Shown in pieces: positions 3,250 through 55,161 of a stretch of DNA of 64,000 nt (position 1 is its first letter; each line of letters begins with the position of its first letter). The notes beneath the pieces were generated by a model. The model ran no database searches. It had not been told where the DNA came from and saw only the letters and a program-made list of their open reading frames with translations. Source of the DNA: a virus (taxonomy: Duplodnaviria; Caudoviricetes). The stretch is taken from positions 72,916-136,915 of the IMG/VR virus record IMGVR_UViG_3300021400_000128; one strand, written 5' to 3'. Both the position numbers and the translations under genes were made by a program.

Positions 3250-3368
3250 GTCAACCATCCTTTAAAGCAAAAGAAGACTGAACATTGATCGCTCAGTCTT
3301 CTTAGGAATCTCGCTGATTATAATTATATCATGAGCGGTGATATATTTTACAGTTTATCTCATCATCC

Positions 3369-3767
3369 TCATCCTAATTCCCAGACATCTTCATCTGAGT
3401 CTCGGTACTCGAACATATCATCCGTAGGTTGTGTTCTGAGCTCCGGATTTTCTTCGATCTGCTTTATCACACCCCAGGCAAGGTCATCCAGAACGTCTTC
3501 ATAGTCATACCATGCCCGTGACGTATCGAAAAGAGCATTAGCGATATAATTGACCGTCCTGTCACCCATCGCCATCAGATAGCGTGCAGCGGGATTGCAC
3601 GTTTCCTTTCCATATTCGATTCCGACACGATCACCATCGTTGTTATAACGATAGATGATCCTGGAAGTAGCACGAACCATCTCCCCGGCAACGCTTTCCG
3701 CTTTTCCCTCGAAAGGAACCAATTCATCAAACAGTTGATTTAATTGATCCTCGTAAATGCTCATCAT
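3369..3767 (-). CDS. Conserved phage hypothetical protein
   Basis: LVPFEGKAESVAGEMVRA..RIIYRYNNDGD, a recurrent phage motif. Confidence 0.7.
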   Translation of the reverse strand: MMSIYEDQLNQLFDELVPFEGKAESVAGEMVRATSRIIYRYNNDGDRVGIEYGKETCNPAARYLMAMGDRTVNYIANALFDTSRAWYDYEDVLDDLAWGVIKQIEENPELRTQPTDDMFEYRDSDEDVWELG

Positions 3768-4059
3768 TTTTGACCTTCCTTTACAATTTGCTGGCCTCGT
3801 TTTATTGCTTTGACACTCCCCATGCCTAAAGGCAGGGGATTCTTAAGAAGGTTGCTAAGATAGCCTTATTCTTAAAGGGCTTGCCAATAGCCCGCTATCC
3901 AGTCTTTCAAAATTGAAATTCTGTTTACATTTCCGTTACCGCCTTATATCCCCATAGTTGAAGCGAGGGGTTTTACGGCTGTTTTCTGATAAAATCACCG
4001 TACCAGTTTGTTTCGAATTGAAAATCAAAATTCTTCAGCATTTGCTGTCGAAGTGTCAT
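3764..4059 (-). pseudogene. 38-aa ORF interrupted by the mini-element
   Basis: Removing 3810-3988 restores MTLRQQMLKNFDFQFETNWYGDFIAIKRGQQIVKEGQK*. Confidence 0.65.
3810..3988 (-). mobile_element. Non-autonomous IS605-type mini-element with a third omegaRNA-like scaffold
   Basis: Same right-end hairpin; left end CCCCATAGTTGAAGCGAGGGG; TAM-like TTTAT at 3989-3993. Confidence 0.85.
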
Positions 4060-5696: not shown

Positions 5697-6074
5697 TTAT
5701 ACATCATCTGATTTACGATGGTTTGATAATTCTGTGGAAAAACCTTCTGGATATCGAGCTTTGAGCTTATCCACATTCATTTGCATGATTTCGTCAAGCT
5801 TCCACCCAAAAGAATGTGCAATCATGGCACAATACCAAAGTGTGTCTCCAAGCTCTTTTTTTGCGTGTTCTCTGTCAAGTTTCGCGCTATGGAATATCCA
5901 CTTTTTTATCATGTCATTGAGCTCTCCTACTTCACCGGAAAGACCAAGGCAGCCATTCAGAATACCACCAACGTCCAAAGTCGTGTCATTACAGTCCATT
6001 CAGAAGTTTAACCGTTCTGTAGCCTTGCCATCGTTAGTTCTCATTGCTAATTCTTGATATTCGTTTCCAGTCAT
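5697..6074 (-). pseudogene. MazG-like nucleotide pyrophosphohydrolase with in-frame TGA at 6000-6002
   Basis: MTGNEYQELAMRTNDGKATERLNF*MDC...GLSGEVGEL..KK...KELGD; intact paralog at 50618-50989. Confidence 0.75.
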
Positions 6075-24386: not shown

Positions 24387-24502
24387 TTGACACTCCCCAT
24401 GCCTAAAGGCAGGGGATTCTTGCTTCACCCACCACAGCATGATTTTCATCACGTCTTACACGATGTCCACAAGCGTTGATTCCCGTGTGTCCCACGGTAT
24501 TT
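24387..24502 (-). ncRNA. TnpB omegaRNA (reRNA) scaffold overlapping the tnpB 3' end
   Basis: ACCGTGGGACACACGGG hairpin ... GTGAAGCAAGAATCCCC ... GTGTCAA. Confidence 0.8.
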
Positions 24503-25599
24503 TCTTTTAAAATTTCCAATCCTTTATTCAGAATGTTGATCGCTGCATTAGCATCACGATTATGATGAGTTCCACATTTTGGACAGTCCCATTCTCGGAT
24601 CGATAAATCCTTTACTTCAGGATTTTTATATCCGCATTGGTTACATGTCTGACTGCTTTCATAGAAGCGTGGTATTTTAACTAATATTCCTTTCCTGTCA
24701 CTCATCTTGTATTGCAGCATTCTGAAAAATTCACTCCAACTTACATCTGCGATTGATCGTGCTAATTTATGATTTTTCATCATTCCTTTGATGTTCAGAT
24801 CTTCAACACATACAACTTGATTCTCGTTTGCAAGTGTTGTTGTCACTTTATGAAGGAAATCTGTTCTGATATTAGTCACTTTTTCGTAAGCAATCGCAAC
24901 TTTTATTCTCTGCTTTTCTCTGTTGTTGCTCCCCTTTACTTTTTTTGACATTCTTCTTTGTGTTCTTGCAAGTTTTTTTGCGTATTTTTTATATGTTTTC
25001 GGATTCGGGATACTATTTTCATTACTGTCAACAAGAAAATCTTTGATCCCAACATCTATTCCAATAATGCCTCCGTTATTTGTCAATTCAGGTTCATCTG
25101 TCTCAACACAAAGCGAAACATAATACTTTCCACTCATCGATTTACTTATTGTTGCATTCAGGATTCGTCCATCGAAGTGTTTCAGTCCTTTATATCTGAC
25201 ATAACCGATTTTAGGTAGCTTGATTGTATTTGCGACAAGCCTAATTCCGTTACTCTGATTTCTTGTTCTGAAAGATTGTTTTCTTTTCTTTGAATGGAAC
25301 TTTGGGAATCCGGCATTCCTTTTGAAGAAATTTTGATAAGCCTTATCTAAATCCTTCAAAGTCTCTTGATATGCCATGCTGTCGGTCAGGTTTAGCCATT
25401 CTTGAGTTCCGTCTTTTTTTAGCTCCGTCAACAACCGCATCGTTTCATACATTGACACTGATTTCTTTTCTTCTTTGTATGACTTAATCCGAAGATCAAG
25501 AAAATGATTATATACATAGCGAACATTTCCAAATGTCTGCTCAATTTGGCTCTTTTGTTCTCTCGTTGGATATAATCTCGCCTTGTATCCTTTGTTCAT
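24403..25599 (-). CDS. tnpB: RNA-guided endonuclease TnpB
   Basis: YKARLYP HTH; RuvC GIDVG / VEDL / RDANAA; CNQC...CPKC. Confidence 0.95.
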   Translation of the reverse strand: MNKGYKARLYPTREQKSQIEQTFGNVRYVYNHFLDLRIKSYKEEKKSVSMYETMRLLTELKKDGTQEWLNLTDSMAYQETLKDLDKAYQNFFKRNAGFPKFHSKKRKQSFRTRNQSNGIRLVANTIKLPKIGYVRYKGLKHFDGRILNATISKSMSGKYYVSLCVETDEPELTNNGGIIGIDVGIKDFLVDSNENSIPNPKTYKKYAKKLARTQRRMSKKVKGSNNREKQRIKVAIAYEKVTNIRTDFLHKVTTTLANENQVVCVEDLNIKGMMKNHKLARSIADVSWSEFFRMLQYKMSDRKGILVKIPRFYESSQTCNQCGYKNPEVKDLSIREWDCPKCGTHHNRDANAAINILNKGLEILKENTVGHTGINACGHRVRRDENHAVVGEARIPCL

Positions 25600-25724
25600 A
25601 CAACACTCACTCGAATAATATTAATATTACCGTCTTTCATCCCCATAGCTAAAGCAAGGGGCTTTTCGGCGATTTTTGGTAATCGCCCAACTGTCCGCTC
25701 AGTTCCATTTGAAAACGTGTCATT

Positions 25725-33116: not shown

Positions 33117-33554
33117 TCAGGCAGTCACTTTGCGAAAGCTGACCGTCGGATTCCCGATCTTCTTGGCGATCCCGATTTCAGGGAATTGCTTTTCCAGCAC
33201 TTTAAGCGTTTTCCCGTCCCATGTCGTCTTACCGGACACCCAGCACGCCATCAGGGATTCACCCTTGACCGTCGCACCGCATTCAAGAACATCGTTCTTG
33301 ATTTCTGCTTCGAGCAGTCCGATCTGTTCGATCAGGTCGGCGTTCTTAGCTTCAAACTGTGCCATCAGTTCGTTATAGACGTTCCGAAGGTTGTTCAGGA
33401 CATCCAGCTTTTCTTCTGTTGTTACCTTTGTCGTTACGATTTGACATTCCTCATAATGGGGATTCTCTCTCGACAATGGCAATCCATTGAGCATAAAAGA
33501 GCTATCTCCGTGTGTCCCACGGTTCGTTTTTGTTACGATTTCGATGTTTTCCAT
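33117..33554 (-). CDS. Coiled-coil phage protein (Gam/Gp157-like) carrying an in-frame 99-bp omegaRNA insert
   Basis: C-terminal GKTTWDGK.L.....PEI...K.GNPTVSFR; roughly residues 9-38 derive from the omegaRNA. Confidence 0.6.
   Translation of the reverse strand: MENIEIVTKTNRGTHGDSSFMLNGLPLSRENPHYEECQIVTTKVTTEEKLDVLNNLRNVYNELMAQFEAKNADLIEQIGLLEAEIKNDVLECGATVKGESLMACWVSGKTTWDGKTLKVLEKQFPEIGIAKKIGNPTVSFRKVTA
33441..33524 (-). ncRNA. Immobilised TnpB omegaRNA copy inside a CDS
   Basis: 33458-33524 matches 52172-52238 at 66/67 nt; right-end hairpin shortened; no left end. Confidence 0.8.
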
Positions 33555-50989: not shown

Positions 50990-51156
50990 TTAACACCTTC
51001 CCATTTCTTCTAAGTCCCAGCCAAGCCGTTGTCCGCAATTTCCACAGTATTTCTGGCATCGTTTTACTGTTTGATGACAAACAGGACATTCGTAATACGA
51101 ATCTCTTTGGTCCTCATGGTAATTTACTGGTATTTTTGTATCGCGATTTACGTTCA

Positions 51157-51411
51157 TTATTCTCTCCATTCTGCTAATAACATTGGTATCGGCATCCACA
51201 TATCTACGATTTCCTGACTGACAAATCCCCTGAACATTTCATCGGTTGTAGGCGAATCGGTATAAAACAGTTGCTGACTTTTTTCATACCATGCCACTTT
51301 AACATTGCCGAATTGCGGATACATCCAACCGAAATGTATAATCACCGACTGATGATCTTCCGGGACTCTTTTCTTGATGTCGATCCATCCGACTTTTTCA
51401 CTCTGCATCAC
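51157..51411 (-). CDS. DUF551-like protein (paralog of 51887-52138)
   Basis: GWIDIK...NVKVAWYEKSQ..FYTDSPT. Confidence 0.7.
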   Translation of the reverse strand: MMQSEKVGWIDIKKRVPEDHQSVIIHFGWMYPQFGNVKVAWYEKSQQLFYTDSPTTDEMFRGFVSQEIVDMWMPIPMLLAEWRE

Positions 51412-51886
51412 TTCTCCTTAGTCAATAGTTCTTTGAGATACTTTTTTCCTTCTTCCGTCTGAGCATAATTGCGAATGCCGAGGATCCACTGAACATAATC
51501 TTTACGGTTTGCGCAGCACTTTACTACCAGATTTGCGATTGTTTTGGTGGCAATCTCATATTCTTTATTTGGAAAAGAAGAATACACTCCTTCAATACCG
51601 CTCTCGATCATCAGCAGATTTAATTCCAAATTCTCCTGTAAAGAATCATCATCTTTCTGCGCTGTCCATGAGAAATGTTTCCCGGAAACAGGCTCTTTTC
51701 TTATAACAACTGATCCGGTGTAGCCGTACCTTTCGCACAGTGCTTCAAATTCGTCAGCGAAGTTATATTTGTTTTCCATTTCTGAAATTCCTTTCATTGC
51801 TTGTTTTTTTATCTCTCTATACATGTAAATACAAAACAGGCTATATTTTTGCACAGGCAAATGTCATATTTCAGCTATGACATTAA

Positions 51887-52138
51887 TCACTCTCGCCACT
51901 CCACTAAGAACATCGGTATCGGCATCCAACGCCTGACAAGCTCTTGTGGAACAAATCCTCTGTCTATTTCATCCATTGTCGGCGAATCTGTATAAAACAA
52001 ATGCTGGCTCTTTTCGTACCATGCTACTTTGACATTCTCGAAATTCGGATATACCCACCCGATATGGATAATTATCGCCTGATGATTTTCCGGCTGTTTA
52101 TCTTTGATATCGATCCATCCGACTTGTTCACTACGCAT
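51887..52138 (-). CDS. DUF551-like protein
   Basis: Near-duplicate of 51157-51411; start MRSEQ just outside the IS right end. Confidence 0.7.
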   Translation of the reverse strand: MRSEQVGWIDIKDKQPENHQAIIIHIGWVYPNFENVKVAWYEKSQHLFYTDSPTMDEIDRGFVPQELVRRWMPIPMFLVEWRE

Positions 52139-52146
52139 TTTCACGC

Positions 52147-52240
52147 TTGACACTCCCCATGCCTAAAGGCAGGGGATTCTCTCTCGACAATGGCAATCCA
52201 TTGAGCATAAAAGAGCTATCCCCGTGTGTCCCACGGTTTT
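52147..52240 (-). ncRNA. Right-end omegaRNA of the adjacent TnpB
   Basis: ACCGTGGGACACACGGGGATAGCTC...GAGAGAATCCCC...GTGTCAA. Confidence 0.85.
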
Positions 52241-52248
52241 TATCAATG

Positions 52249-53379
52249 CTATTGTGCATATAATAACAACCCTTGTTTTCTGATATTGATAGCAGCATTC
52301 AAGTCTCTGTTGTGAACTGTTCCGCACTCAGGACATATCCAACTCCTATCACCTAATTTCAATTCAGCATTTACATATCCGCACTGATTACACGTTTTTG
52401 AAGAAGGAAACCACTTGTCTATCGCGATGAGCTTCTTTCCACGCTCAATCAGTTTATAGGACAGAAATGTTCTAAATTGTCCGAAACCGTTATCAGTCGT
52501 TGCTTTGGCAAGGTGTAAACCCTGTGACATTGCCTTATAGTCAATATCTTCCACGGCAATAATATCATATTGATCCGCAAGTTTGGTGCTCAACTTGTGC
52601 TGCCAATCTTGCCGACAATTGCGTACTTTTTCAAACGCACGAGCAACCTTGATTCTCTGCTTTTCCCAATTTGAGCTTCCTTTTTGTTTTCTGGATAATC
52701 TCCGTTGTTCACGTGCCAATTTTCGTTCCGCTTCACGGTAGAAATGGGGCATATCTGCTTTATTTCCTTCGCTATCCACATAAAAATGTGGGGAACTGTA
52801 ATCAAGCCCGATTGAATTTTCAGTATTCAGTTCACGTTCAGGAATATCAAGCTCATACTCAAACCCGATGGATACAAAATACTTTCCACTCGGTTCCTGG
52901 GACACTGTAGCATTCAGGATTCTTGCTCCTTCCGGTAATTTTCGGCACAGCTTTGTTTTCACTATTCCTAATTTTGGAAGGCGCACATTCCCGTTCTCAA
53001 TCCGCGTAACATTGTCGCATCCGACCGTTTGATAGGATTTTTGATTATCCTTCTTGCGCTTGAATTTCGGGAATCCAGGAGTACCACCCTTTTTTACGTT
53101 CCTGAAGAAATTCTGATACGCAGTATTCAGGTTACGGAGCGCACATTGCAAGGCGTTTTTATCCGGTTCTTTCAGCCATTCGTATTCATTCTTCAAGTCA
53201 GTAAGCATCTTGTTCTGCTGAAAAAATGATCTGCTTTCACCGTTTTCTTTATAAGCGGTGATTCTATCAAAAAGGAAGTGATTATAAACAAAGCGAACAC
53301 ATCCGAAAGTCTTCTGAATCAGCTCTTCTTGCTGCTTATTTGGATAAATTCTGTATTTGTATGCTTTATTTGAAATCAT
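52249..53379 (-). CDS. tnpB: RNA-guided endonuclease TnpB (CRISPR-adjacent), RuvC D-E-D intact
   Basis: KAYKYRIYP; IGLDYS / VEDI / RDLNAA; CNQC...CPEC. Confidence 0.95.
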   Translation of the reverse strand: MISNKAYKYRIYPNKQQEELIQKTFGCVRFVYNHFLFDRITAYKENGESRSFFQQNKMLTDLKNEYEWLKEPDKNALQCALRNLNTAYQNFFRNVKKGGTPGFPKFKRKKDNQKSYQTVGCDNVTRIENGNVRLPKLGIVKTKLCRKLPEGARILNATVSQEPSGKYFVSIGFEYELDIPERELNTENSIGLDYSSPHFYVDSEGNKADMPHFYREAERKLAREQRRLSRKQKGSSNWEKQRIKVARAFEKVRNCRQDWQHKLSTKLADQYDIIAVEDIDYKAMSQGLHLAKATTDNGFGQFRTFLSYKLIERGKKLIAIDKWFPSSKTCNQCGYVNAELKLGDRSWICPECGTVHNRDLNAAINIRKQGLLLYAQ

Positions 53380-53396
53380 TTTTCTTCCTTTTTACG

Positions 53397-53546
53397 AATT
53401 TTGCAGTCGTCTATACCCTCTTTTGGTAGGGGCTATCATCGGTTGGTATATACGTACCTAATTTAACAGGTGTCTATACCTTGGCTGCTATGTAGTAACC
53501 GGGGTTCTTTGGTATATACGTACCTAATTTAACAGGTGTCTATACC
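53397..53546 (-). CRISPR. Mini CRISPR array: two identical 36-nt repeats + degenerate terminal repeat, spacers 30 and 27 nt
   Basis: GGTATAGACACCTGTTAAATTAGGTACGTATATACC at 53511-53546 and 53445-53480; 17/21 match at 53397-53417. Confidence 0.85.
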
Positions 53547-53547
53547 T

Positions 53548-53675
53548 GGTATATTATCTTGTAAAATAAGGTACGAACTTCTTGCTTCACCGACCGCTCA
53601 GTGCAATCTCCACAAGCGTTATGTTCCCGCATACCCTGCGGTACAGTTTTAACAGTGTTTCACTGTGTTGCACTT
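53548..53675 (-). ncRNA. omegaRNA-derived tracrRNA-like scaffold with anti-repeat
   Basis: Shares TTCTTGCTTCACC and TCCACAAGCGTT with the omegaRNA at 24417-24477; anti-repeat 53548-53575 (21/28); TATAAT at 53679-53684. Confidence 0.8.
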
Positions 53676-53709
53676 ATTATTATACTCAATATCCTTGTTT
53701 TGTACAGGT

Positions 53710-53736
53710 ATTAGTGTAAAATAGTGTTACACTAAT
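53710..53736. promoter_or_regulatory. Palindromic operator in a divergent promoter region
   Basis: ATTAGTGTAA-7nt-TTACACTAAT overlaps the TG-TAAAAT -10 of the RHH gene. Confidence 0.65.
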
Positions 53737-53752
53737 TTGAAAGGCGGTTGCT

Positions 53753-53905
53753 ATGGTTTCCGATAACAATACCCGTGTCATGGTCACTATCCCGAAAGAG
53801 TTGAAAGAACAGTTGTCTGTCATTGCAGAAAATGAAGGACGCTCCCTTTCTAACCTCATTGTCCAGATTCTAAAAAATTATGTAAATGAATCCTTGACCC
53901 CATAG
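53753..53905 (+). CDS. Ribbon-helix-helix (CopG/Arc-like) regulator, 50 aa (below ORF-track cutoff)
   Basis: MVSDNNTRVMVTIPKELKEQLSVIAENEGRSLSNLIVQILKNYVNESLTP; GAAAGG RBS. Confidence 0.85.
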   Translation: MVSDNNTRVMVTIPKELKEQLSVIAENEGRSLSNLIVQILKNYVNESLTP

Positions 53906-54116
53906 CTAAAGCAAGGGGATTGCAGACGCTTTCCCATTCAATGTTTTCCTCACGGCATTTGTTACATCCATCTTTTTCATTACAATAATTATTTCTCGTG
54001 ATAAAATAGCATAACGTCGCACCATTACATAACTGTTCTCTCTCAATTTCAGTACAAGTAATTTTCATCTCTAACTCCACATGTAACACCGTCGAATGTA
54101 GCATTCAGTCAGCTTT

Positions 54117-54665
54117 TCACTTCTTATCATGCCAATTTCCTTTCAGATCATAATGTCCTAAATCTTCCCATCGTAACCATTTATGACAACGTGGGCATGT
54201 TGGCTTCAAAAATTCCACTTCGACATGGCATTCTGAACATGAATACTGTATTCCTTCTTTTCCTTTACTCATGGCTATAGCAACTGATTGTCTATTTTTG
54301 TTTTCATCCTTTTCTAACTTTTCTAAAATTAGTTCCTGTTGTGATGATCTTTCACCCCATCCATATTTATCTTCATCAATGTTTTGCAAAACTGTACTAA
54401 TAATTTCCTCGGCATCAATATAATTAAAAAAATCTTCATCCACGTATTGTAAGAAATATTCAATTAACTGTTTATTTAGTTCATCCCATACATCCATATT
54501 AGGATCTCCGCCAAAACCATCTTCTGATGCTAAATAGTACCATTTGTATGGGTCGGTTTCTTCACAATACCCTGGCATTTCTCTATAGCGTATCCAATTT
54601 AAAACAGTACTTTCAACTAATTCTGCTACCGCTTTTCTTTCAGTTAATAATTCTGTAAATTTCAC
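54117..54665 (-). CDS. Hypothetical protein with C-terminal zinc ribbon
   Basis: CSECH...CPRCH; flanked by an imperfect ~60-bp direct repeat. Confidence 0.65.
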   Translation of the reverse strand: MKFTELLTERKAVAELVESTVLNWIRYREMPGYCEETDPYKWYYLASEDGFGGDPNMDVWDELNKQLIEYFLQYVDEDFFNYIDAEEIISTVLQNIDEDKYGWGERSSQQELILEKLEKDENKNRQSVAIAMSKGKEGIQYSCSECHVEVEFLKPTCPRCHKWLRWEDLGHYDLKGNWHDKK

Positions 54666-54744
54666 TTTTTAACTCCTTTCACCTTTTAGAATTCTGGCTT
54701 CATCTTCTGTTTCTTTTCATTTTCTGTACACGTAATTTTCATCT

Positions 54745-55161
54745 TCAACTCCAAATCATGTAACATTTTCGGTTGTAGCATTCAGTCAGCAACGCTTTAA
54801 AATCTGCCCCGGTCATCTGTTGCCCCTTTTCCCAACCGCCGTAACCATATTGAACAGTGTCATCCATGTTTTGGATCGTCTCCAGTAACACCTTGCATTT
54901 GTAAGGCGAATATTTTCCGGAACAGTCTGATAGGTAAAGGAATTCCACTGCCCACTTCTTAGGCTTCAGCTTTCCTAACATTTCCATTTCTAACAAATAC
55001 TGCGTGTTGTCATCGACAACGCTTGTGTAACCCTGGGCATACAATTCGCCGAATTCCGGTGATATCTGTTTTGCAATATCCATCCGCAACCGTCCGAAGG
55101 TGAGATATCCCATGAACCACTGAGGAGCTTCTGGATATTTTGCAGACAACATGACTCCCAT
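54745..55161 (-). CDS. Phage hypothetical protein
   Basis: MGY..F.RLR..IA...FLYLSDC.GK. Confidence 0.65.
   Translation of the reverse strand: MGVMLSAKYPEAPQWFMGYLTFGRLRMDIAKQISPEFGELYAQGYTSVVDDNTQYLLEMEMLGKLKPKKWAVEFLYLSDCSGKYSPYKCKVLLETIQNMDDTVQYGYGGWEKGQQMTGADFKALLTECYNRKCYMIWS

Follow-up and report, generated by a model that had tools for sequence, protein, structure and literature searches.

A probable transposon-CRISPR intermediate inside an IS200/IS605 element of a ruminant-gut phage

Can a transposon-encoded nuclease be supplied with guides from a CRISPR array while it still travels within a transposon? The question is raised by an insertion sequence (IS) element of the IS200/IS605 family that occupies positions 52147-53936, on the minus strand, of a 64,000-nucleotide stretch of phage DNA (hereafter the window). 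The window corresponds to bases 72916-136915 of the IMG/VR record IMGVR_UViG_3300021400_000128, which is 136,915 bp long, has direct terminal repeats and is rated complete. Public sequencing runs in which it occurs are gut metagenomes (sheep, bovine and goat), and the carrier is a ruminant-gut phage. Inside the element, an omegaRNA-like scaffold and a two-spacer array lie upstream of tnpB. An earlier interpretation made from the letters of the window (the sequence-only reading) had proposed this layout, and we found every item it listed in its place. We think it probable that the locus is a TranC-type transposon-CRISPR intermediate within a still-transposable element.

Anatomy of the element

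The array can be read directly from the sequence. Unless noted otherwise, all features described here lie on the minus strand. Repeat 1 (53511-53546) is 36 nt long, with a 3' part consisting of AGGTACG and TATATACC, and is followed by spacer 1 (53481-53510; 30 nt, its two leading A possibly being part of the repeat). Repeat 2 (53445-53480; 36 nt) is identical to repeat 1 and precedes spacer 2 (53418-53444; 27 nt). The last unit is a degenerate terminal repeat (about 53382-53417; repeat family D2), in which the ribosome-binding site of tnpB takes the place of the 3' half. It directly abuts the tnpB start, an arrangement common to all orthologous loci. The duplication of the repeat, seen as two matches, was reached in 0 of 100 shuffles.

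Upstream of repeat 1, an anti-repeat (about 53548-53575) occupies the slot of the right-end hairpin in a normal omegaRNA. Our own count of its complementarity to the repeat, 21 of 28 positions, agrees with the figure first proposed, and RNAfold forms 18 bp between the anti-repeat and repeat 1. It is preceded by a scaffold (53578-53672) that looks like a tracrRNA (trans-activating CRISPR RNA) and appears to derive from an omegaRNA, with a leader hairpin, a stem 1 bearing a GGUA pseudoknot loop, a CUUG:CAAG helix and a stem 2. An Rfam search over 51000-55000 returned no family, the sole match being at chance level (E 0.75).

Downstream of the array, tnpB (52249-53379) encodes 376 amino acids with the Pfam domains HTH_OrfB_IS605, OrfB_IS605 and Cas12f1-like_TNB. 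The protein aligns over its full length with ISDra2 TnpB (E 5e-85), and D193, E277 and D359 stand opposite ISDra2 D191, E278 and D361, bearing out the proposal that the RuvC triad is intact. Both CxxC pairs of the zinc finger are present, and there is no C-terminal extension. The PADLOC models for Cas12f and Cas12u4 match it, and the closest phage TnpB in INPHARED is 50% identical. Within the array-bearing clade, the ratio of nonsynonymous to synonymous divergence (dN/dS) of tnpB is 0.04-0.15, and the gene is under purifying selection.

The element also retains its own right-end RNA (reRNA, an omegaRNA of type 1) at 52147-52243, as had been claimed. This RNA finishes with GTGTCAA at the right end (52147) and is conserved, with a covarying middle hairpin, in at least ten loci that include relatives lacking an array. 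From the right-end boundary and the known TnpB mechanism, its predicted guide is the flanking DNA at 52127-52146, which covers the start of a DUF551 gene. Two paralogous DUF551-like genes lie at 51157-51411 and 51887-52153, and the right end of the element falls upstream of the second, some 12 nt before its likely ATG.

The limits of the element, 52147 and 53936, were fixed by alignment with a sister element (L003) and by the empty site of a sibling mini-element described below. The left end (53890-53936), supported by the end repeat and the L003 alignment, carries a subterminal hairpin, CCCCTTGC..ATGGGG, and its motif recurs at four other places in the phage. End-like 24-mers (repeat family D3) are found at 52155-52178 and 53898-53921. 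Immediately outside the element, a TTGAA target-adjacent motif (TAM; 53937-53941) flanks the left end.

On the plus strand, just inside the left end, a 50-residue Arc-like ribbon-helix-helix (RHH) protein is encoded at 53753-53905 (Pfam RHH_5, 2.3e-11; PHROG Arc-like repressor). The same gene lies beside tnpB in L003, L005, L012, L023, L024 and L025, and in the array-less L014; its product is probably a repressor. It diverges from the promoter that would serve the scaffold, array and tnpB, a sigma-70-like TGTACA-16 nt-TATAAT site at 53679-53706 with 10 of 12 matches and the best score in the region. Palindromes of the GTGTAACAC type, read from the sequence, flank this promoter and are likely RHH operators.

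RNA structure, spacer turnover and mobility

If the scaffold and repeats act together, their pairing should be preserved as their sequences change. We aligned eight loci (alignment A1) and scored a model composed of stem 1, CUUG:CAAG, stem 2, the anti-repeat:handle helix and the pseudoknot. The structure was paired in 97.1% of cells and contained five pairs with compensatory changes on both sides, counts that are favoured by the derivation of the model from the same sequences on which it was scored. The observed values were reached in 0 of 500 shuffles, and slid 3' partners, used as a control, were 24-42% paired. RNAalifold independently predicts the same four nested helices, which RNAfold also finds in single sequences, and compensatory changes occur in four helices and in the pseudoknot.

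In the pseudoknot, the stem-1 loop forms 4 bp with the 3' end of the repeat. At pair 15:140, three loci (the window, L003 and L011) have G-C, with loop GGUA and repeat end UACC, and four (L005, L012, L023 and L024) have U-A, with GUUA:UAAC. The anti-repeat:repeat helix (72-79:128-135 in A1) is kept with different sequence in L003 and L025; the anti-repeats of these two loci and the window vary, and pairing is retained. The 3' 16 nt of the repeat are the scaffold's own terminal handle, covarying with the scaffold loop.

Loci differ in how the scaffold closes. In L005, L012 and L024 it ends with a short hairpin and the 3' 16 nt of the repeat, with a spacer directly after, which is exactly the arrangement of a single-guide omegaRNA. 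The scaffold hairpin is longer in the window, L003 and L025, where an anti-repeat and a full repeat extend it, and the window scaffold is fused to repeat 1. Since the scaffold runs straight into repeat 1, unit 1 would constitute a natural single-guide RNA. Because every repeat carries the common handle, later units may be read as CRISPR RNAs (crRNAs) and the scaffold as their tracrRNA.

To place the array in its family, we compared related loci. In a protein search, about ten clusters showed 82-96% identity, and thousands of others reached 73% or less. Ten loci make up the array lineage: the window, L003, L004, L005 (whose sequence recurs as L006 and L007), L011, L012, L013, L023, L024 and L025. 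Their TnpBs are 78-96% identical, and all have an upstream scaffold. Three spacers are present in L012 and L024, two in the window, L005 and L023, and one in L003 and L011; L004, where the contig begins inside the array, has at least one. L025 has no spacer, nor does L013, in which the scaffold is truncated and stem 1 lost.

The spacers themselves turn over completely. The sequence-only reading had proposed a search for orthologous loci with different spacers, and no spacer is common to any of the ten. Between the window and L003, all spacers differ at a synonymous divergence (dS) of 0.135 in tnpB. L004 and L005 have an equal right-end flank, and hence the same insertion site, and their last spacers differ. 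In a bovine-gut contig, the same element has 63 other letters in place of 53387-53508. Internal spacers are 29-30 nt long throughout. At the DNA level, neither the locus nor the scaffold nor any of three arrays had a match in INPHARED (GenBank phages).

More distant relatives lack the array altogether. L014, L030 and L033 (65-73% identity) contain a left end with or without the RHH gene, tnpB and reRNA, and neither scaffold nor array. This is the ancestral state, and the cassette was therefore acquired a single time, at the root of the clade that bears arrays. In another locus (L021:1806-1992, minus), the right-end hairpin follows immediately on the RHH-side promoter and scaffold, and both array and tnpB are missing. 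The stem-1 loop there, GGUA, no longer matches the linker GUGUC, which looks like the result of a deletion between two homologous RNAs.

The claim that the element is still mobile is supported by its differing sites in related phages. WTGAA (TTGAA or ATGAA) stands directly 5' of the left end in eight of eight family elements, and the array-bearing copies have at least seven different right-end flanks. The sister-phage copy, L003, lies between homologues of window positions of about 3356-3776 and 441-2205 rather than those of 52-54 kb. A 139-bp RNA-only sibling, resembling a palindrome-associated transposable element (PATE), is found at 302-440 of the window (minus), in which a left-end hairpin (399-428) is joined to a type-1 reRNA with its right end (300-391). 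The corresponding empty site, CTCGAA|AAAGGAG, is present at about 6002-6006 in the sister phage L003, and this contrast of empty and filled site fixes the ends of the family. Insertion takes place 3' of a short TAM, with no duplication of the target. Overall, the element appears to be still mobile among phages.

No tnpA is found between the ends of the element. The phage has a single Y1 TnpA gene (G000:69599-69964), located in an element whose end hairpins differ. The studied element is therefore non-autonomous, and a cognate transposase would have to be supplied from elsewhere.

Three further observations concern the insertion site and its surroundings. A 26-kb bovine-gut contig from run X3 has both flanks (window 52110-52147 and 53932-54000) with a different 1,533-bp insert, so that in this related phage the site is occupied by another element. 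In run X19, probably from the source sample, a 185-nt contig from a metatranscriptome library matches window 52147-52322 (the 3' end of tnpB and the reRNA) with no substitutions and one 1-nt insertion; its flank beyond 52147 is a different one, a hint of a second insertion site. A few genes downstream of the element in L003, a 93-residue protein with the Pfam family Cas_VVA1548 is encoded at L003:5242-5523, homologous to about 926-1207 of the window (minus).

Scaffold lineage, targets and rival explanations

On the reading we favour, the RHH-controlled promoter would produce a single RNA comprising the omegaRNA-derived scaffold, the two-spacer array and the tnpB mRNA. The end handle of each repeat would pair with the anti-repeat and, through the 4-bp pseudoknot, with the stem-1 loop of the scaffold. 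The most likely user is the co-transcribed 376-residue TnpB, catalytically intact as judged from its residues, which with array guides would cut spacer-matched DNA of rival mobile elements. Its own right-end RNA would still direct a cut at TTGAA and flanking DNA that serves transposon retention or homing. We infer the RNA processing, the binding of the scaffold by the nuclease and the TAM for array guides.

The sequence-only reading held that an omegaRNA of the element had become the tracrRNA. We built a covariance model (R1) from the scaffold alignment and used it to score homology to the omegaRNAs of this phage, which contains three TnpB elements. The second (24387-25664 of the window, minus) encodes a 398-residue TnpB (24403-25599) that is 47% identical to the TnpB studied here. 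Its ends are nearly identical to those of the studied element, its omegaRNA core is of the upstream-scaffold type, and its left-end flank suggests a TTAC-type TAM. The third (G000:C1:68490-69964, outside the window; loci L015 and L018) is an autonomous IS605 element with a Y1 tnpA, a TnpB 45% identical and different end hairpins. R1 matches the 3' omegaRNA of the second TnpB (24387-24504) with 48.2 bits (E 9e-10), that of the third with 38.5 bits and that of L008, with a 44%-identical TnpB, with 26.2 bits. Against the element's own reRNA it gives 15.5 bits, with filters off and a small search space.

Homology to omegaRNAs therefore stands, and descent from the element's own omegaRNA does not. 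In its core, AACGCTTGTGGAG ... GAAGCAAGAA, the scaffold matches the omegaRNAs of the second and third elements. The own reRNA is of another type, GATAGCTC..ATCGAGAGAGAAT, which is the cognate RNA across the whole clade of the studied TnpB, down to 65% identity. Its core is different from that of the scaffold, yet the two RNAs share one architecture from end to end, and its loop GACAC pairs with GUGUC as the counterpart of the scaffold pseudoknot. Elsewhere in the phage, R1 has a weak match (17.8 bits) at 33441-33529 of the window, where a type-1 reRNA also gives a BLAST match; left-end-like hairpin motifs with 8-9 mismatches in 30 positions at window 3944-3973 and G000:C1:11328-11357 are possibly IS remnants.

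A search for protospacers, as the sequence-only reading had suggested, gave one target. The spacer concerned belongs to an orthologous array: S0, the first of L012, matches three IMG/VR contigs at 29/29, 28/29 and 27/29 positions, in each case inside a Terminase_3 gene. The outcome named beforehand as refuting, identical spacers at every orthologous locus and no protospacers, is contradicted by these results. By our own estimate, the chance expectation of a 22-mer in a collection of that size is well below one. Among the three carriers DNA identity is only about 70-76%, and the terminase they encode has 22% identity to that of the window phage. One of them, an unrelated element with the 29/29 match (L029; IMGVR_UViG_3300031853_005164), is 11,046 bp long with a 119-bp terminal repeat and encodes an integrase, a primase-helicase, a ParA-like protein and a large terminase. 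Because none of its seven largest open reading frames matches capsid or tail families, L029 looks satellite-like, and it may be a phage satellite. The corresponding search with the S0 spacer of L005 recovered its own locus alone.

How spacers would enter the array can be considered from what the phage lacks. The absence of Cas1 and Cas2 genes, first noted for the window, extends to the complete 136,915-bp phage genome, where Cas4 is absent as well. Because the phage has no adaptation genes, spacers are probably acquired through host machinery in trans, and the regular spacers of 29-30 nt would argue for a ruler-type integrase supplied in this way. We also considered former right-end flanks as the source of the spacers; this is unlikely, given the regular internal lengths and a sole target that lies inside a foreign terminase gene.

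Several of these observations weigh against a TranC-type intermediate. The missing adaptation genes are one. The scaffold is of the lineage of TnpBs only 45-47% identical to the adjacent one, whose use of it is assumed. Neither window spacer has a match in the phage itself, IMG/VR (exact 20-21-mers), INPHARED or PLSDB, the array as a whole has no PLSDB plasmid match, and spacer 1 has no exact match in GTDB species genomes. The 5' flank of the L012 protospacer, YTKGACGA, has no directly adjacent WTGAA; TTGAC lies two bases from the match, and a single protospacer family within a coding region is too little for naming a TAM of the array guides. The guess of a TTGAA motif fits the left ends of the elements. 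A degenerate 27-nt pattern of the repeat was found in 0 of 185,579 bacterial species genomes, at exact-pattern sensitivity only. In two RNA-library runs coverage is limited to 52100-52355 and parts of tnpB and does not reach the scaffold or array, though such contigs are uninformative on transcription. Finally, trailing spacers are only 17-27 nt long, and the tiny array, the shortened terminal spacers and the spacer-less L013 and L025 suggest that some copies are decaying.

A more far-reaching version of the favoured reading, which we advance only tentatively, would have the TnpB use both RNA types. The element would be a self-contained transposable mini-CRISPR that hops from one phage genome to another as a unit, with a 'bilingual' TnpB using its own reRNA for homing and a captured scaffold of foreign lineage for array guides against satellites and rival phages, with spacers that turn over without a Cas1-Cas2 encoded by element or phage.

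The same two RNA types admit a different division of labour, in which the scaffold and array are a guide cassette for a TnpB of the second- or third-element type that is encoded elsewhere, in phage or host, and acts in trans; the adjacent TnpB would use its own right-end RNA only, and the cassette would simply be a passenger in its transposon. The higher R1 scores of those omegaRNAs than of the cognate reRNA speak for this, as do the presence of both other TnpBs in the window phage and the difference between the protospacer flank and the WTGAA of the adjacent TnpB's family. We nevertheless judge it unlikely. The cassette is placed between the promoter and the tnpB start and is co-inherited with tnpB in 10 of 10 array-lineage loci, and both RNA types have the same end-to-end architecture. 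On element-bearing contigs of 138 kb, 60 kb and 85 kb, no relative of the second TnpB at 79% identity or above is among the listed matches, a weak point. Predicted co-transcription, strict co-inheritance and, weakly, this lack of a listed close relative on sister-phage contigs all favour the adjacent TnpB as the user.

The signs of decay could mean more than the loss of some copies of a TranC-type intermediate: the whole arrangement might be a disused relic left by duplication or recombination of an omegaRNA end, with the copies separated by junk. The very short array, its degenerate terminal repeat and truncated last spacers, the two spacer-less loci (one of them minus stem 1) and L021, as a deletion form without array or tnpB, are what such a relic could leave. 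A relic is difficult to square with compensatory changes in four helices and a pseudoknot, identical repeats in the window, regular internal spacers that were fully replaced at a tnpB dS of 0.135, and one spacer with a perfect foreign match, and we regard it as improbable.

Phages carry solitary repeat units and mini-arrays, and the 36+30 geometry here resembles that of type II arrays, but a mini-array copied from a host CRISPR, as a decoy (an RNA anti-CRISPR) or to borrow host Cas proteins independently of TnpB, is very improbable given a repeat handle that covaries with the scaffold loop and a repeat pattern missing from all the species genomes searched, on which a host-repeat origin was rejected at exact-pattern sensitivity.

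If the locus is a TranC-type intermediate, it is a rare case in which all stages are present at one place: intact transposon ends and reRNA, with RNA-only siblings in the same genome. The series across the family also spans array-less relatives and copies in which true repeat-spacer units come after a first unit fused as a single guide. Capture from another TnpB lineage may be the origin of the tracr-like scaffold. The spacer match to a satellite-like terminase points to conflict between phages and satellites as the selective setting, on the evidence of one orthologous spacer. A 376-residue TnpB with a natural single guide would be a candidate for a very small genome editor. Should the more far-reaching version hold, this TnpB would be the smallest natural CRISPR-type effector, and an array could arise by capture of a foreign scaffold as well as by splitting of the own reRNA.

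Comparison with known systems

The TranC class was defined by Jin et al. (Cell 2025;188:6283, doi 10.1016/j.cell.2025.09.004), and published bench work supports it. A later preprint (bioRxiv 10.64898/2026.03.27.714800) reports many TranC clades, including the phage-borne clade 9 (CauTranC9), with a mean of 414 aa, a 38-bp repeat, five repeats and spacers that match phages; it is termed the smallest clade and the smallest active CRISPR-associated nuclease. Like TranC, the window element has a TnpB-sized effector without domain accretion, a guide RNA apparently split into a tracr-like scaffold and crRNA repeats that retain the 3' end of an reRNA, and a short array (repeats of 36-38 nt) without cas1, cas2 or cas4. 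Phage carriage and spacers against other mobile elements, here one orthologous spacer, are further points of likeness.

The class is thus already published, and what would distinguish this member is the combination of an upstream leader position, RHH control, a fused first guide, a scaffold of foreign lineage beside a retained reRNA, mobility and a very small effector. The 376-residue protein falls below the clade-9 mean. The gene has its scaffold and array upstream, in the predicted mRNA leader behind a promoter predicted to be RHH-controlled, whereas arrays are almost always downstream of cas12 (PMC10691335, where RHH-TnpB pairs are also presented as possible toxin-antitoxin systems). Here the scaffold is fused to repeat 1 and comes from another omegaRNA lineage than the reRNA that the element retains, and the unit keeps its IS ends and is found at seven or more sites. 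Of the TranC clades, we compared its sequence with LaTranC only (9jfo), to which just TnpB residues 240-367, the C-terminal RuvC part, align (E 8e-25); by sequence, the protein lies outside that clade.

The element is also comparable to ordinary IS200/IS605 systems, represented by ISDra2 TnpB-omegaRNA (PDB 8bf8 and 8h1j). The two have in common full-length protein similarity, the RuvC triad and zinc finger, and a 3' reRNA that runs to the right end and has a loop-to-linker pseudoknot. They also agree in their subterminal hairpins, in the 5-nt TAM found at the left end and in the presence of PATE-like siblings, made up of the RNA only, within one genome. Unlike ISDra2, the window element has neither tnpA nor the ISDra2 C-terminal tail, and it adds the upstream scaffold, the array and the RHH gene.

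Type V-F and V-U (Cas12f-like) systems and the miniature phage Cas12 'hacker' (bioRxiv 10.1101/2025.01.20.633832) resemble the locus in having a tracrRNA anti-repeat and a pseudoknot to the 3' end of the repeat, and in arrays without adaptation genes. The type V-F/V-U effectors, however, have 400-700 aa with enlarged REC and WED domains, their arrays lie downstream, and the systems are no longer inside transposon ends. Another phage-borne parallel is the CRISPR-Cas system of phage ICP1, which reportedly acts against phage-inducible chromosomal island-like element (PLE) satellites and is said to be a complete type I-F system with adaptation genes. The likeness lies in a phage-encoded RNA-guided nuclease and a spacer matching a small integrative satellite-like element, for which the evidence here, unlike that for ICP1, is one spacer of an orthologous locus.

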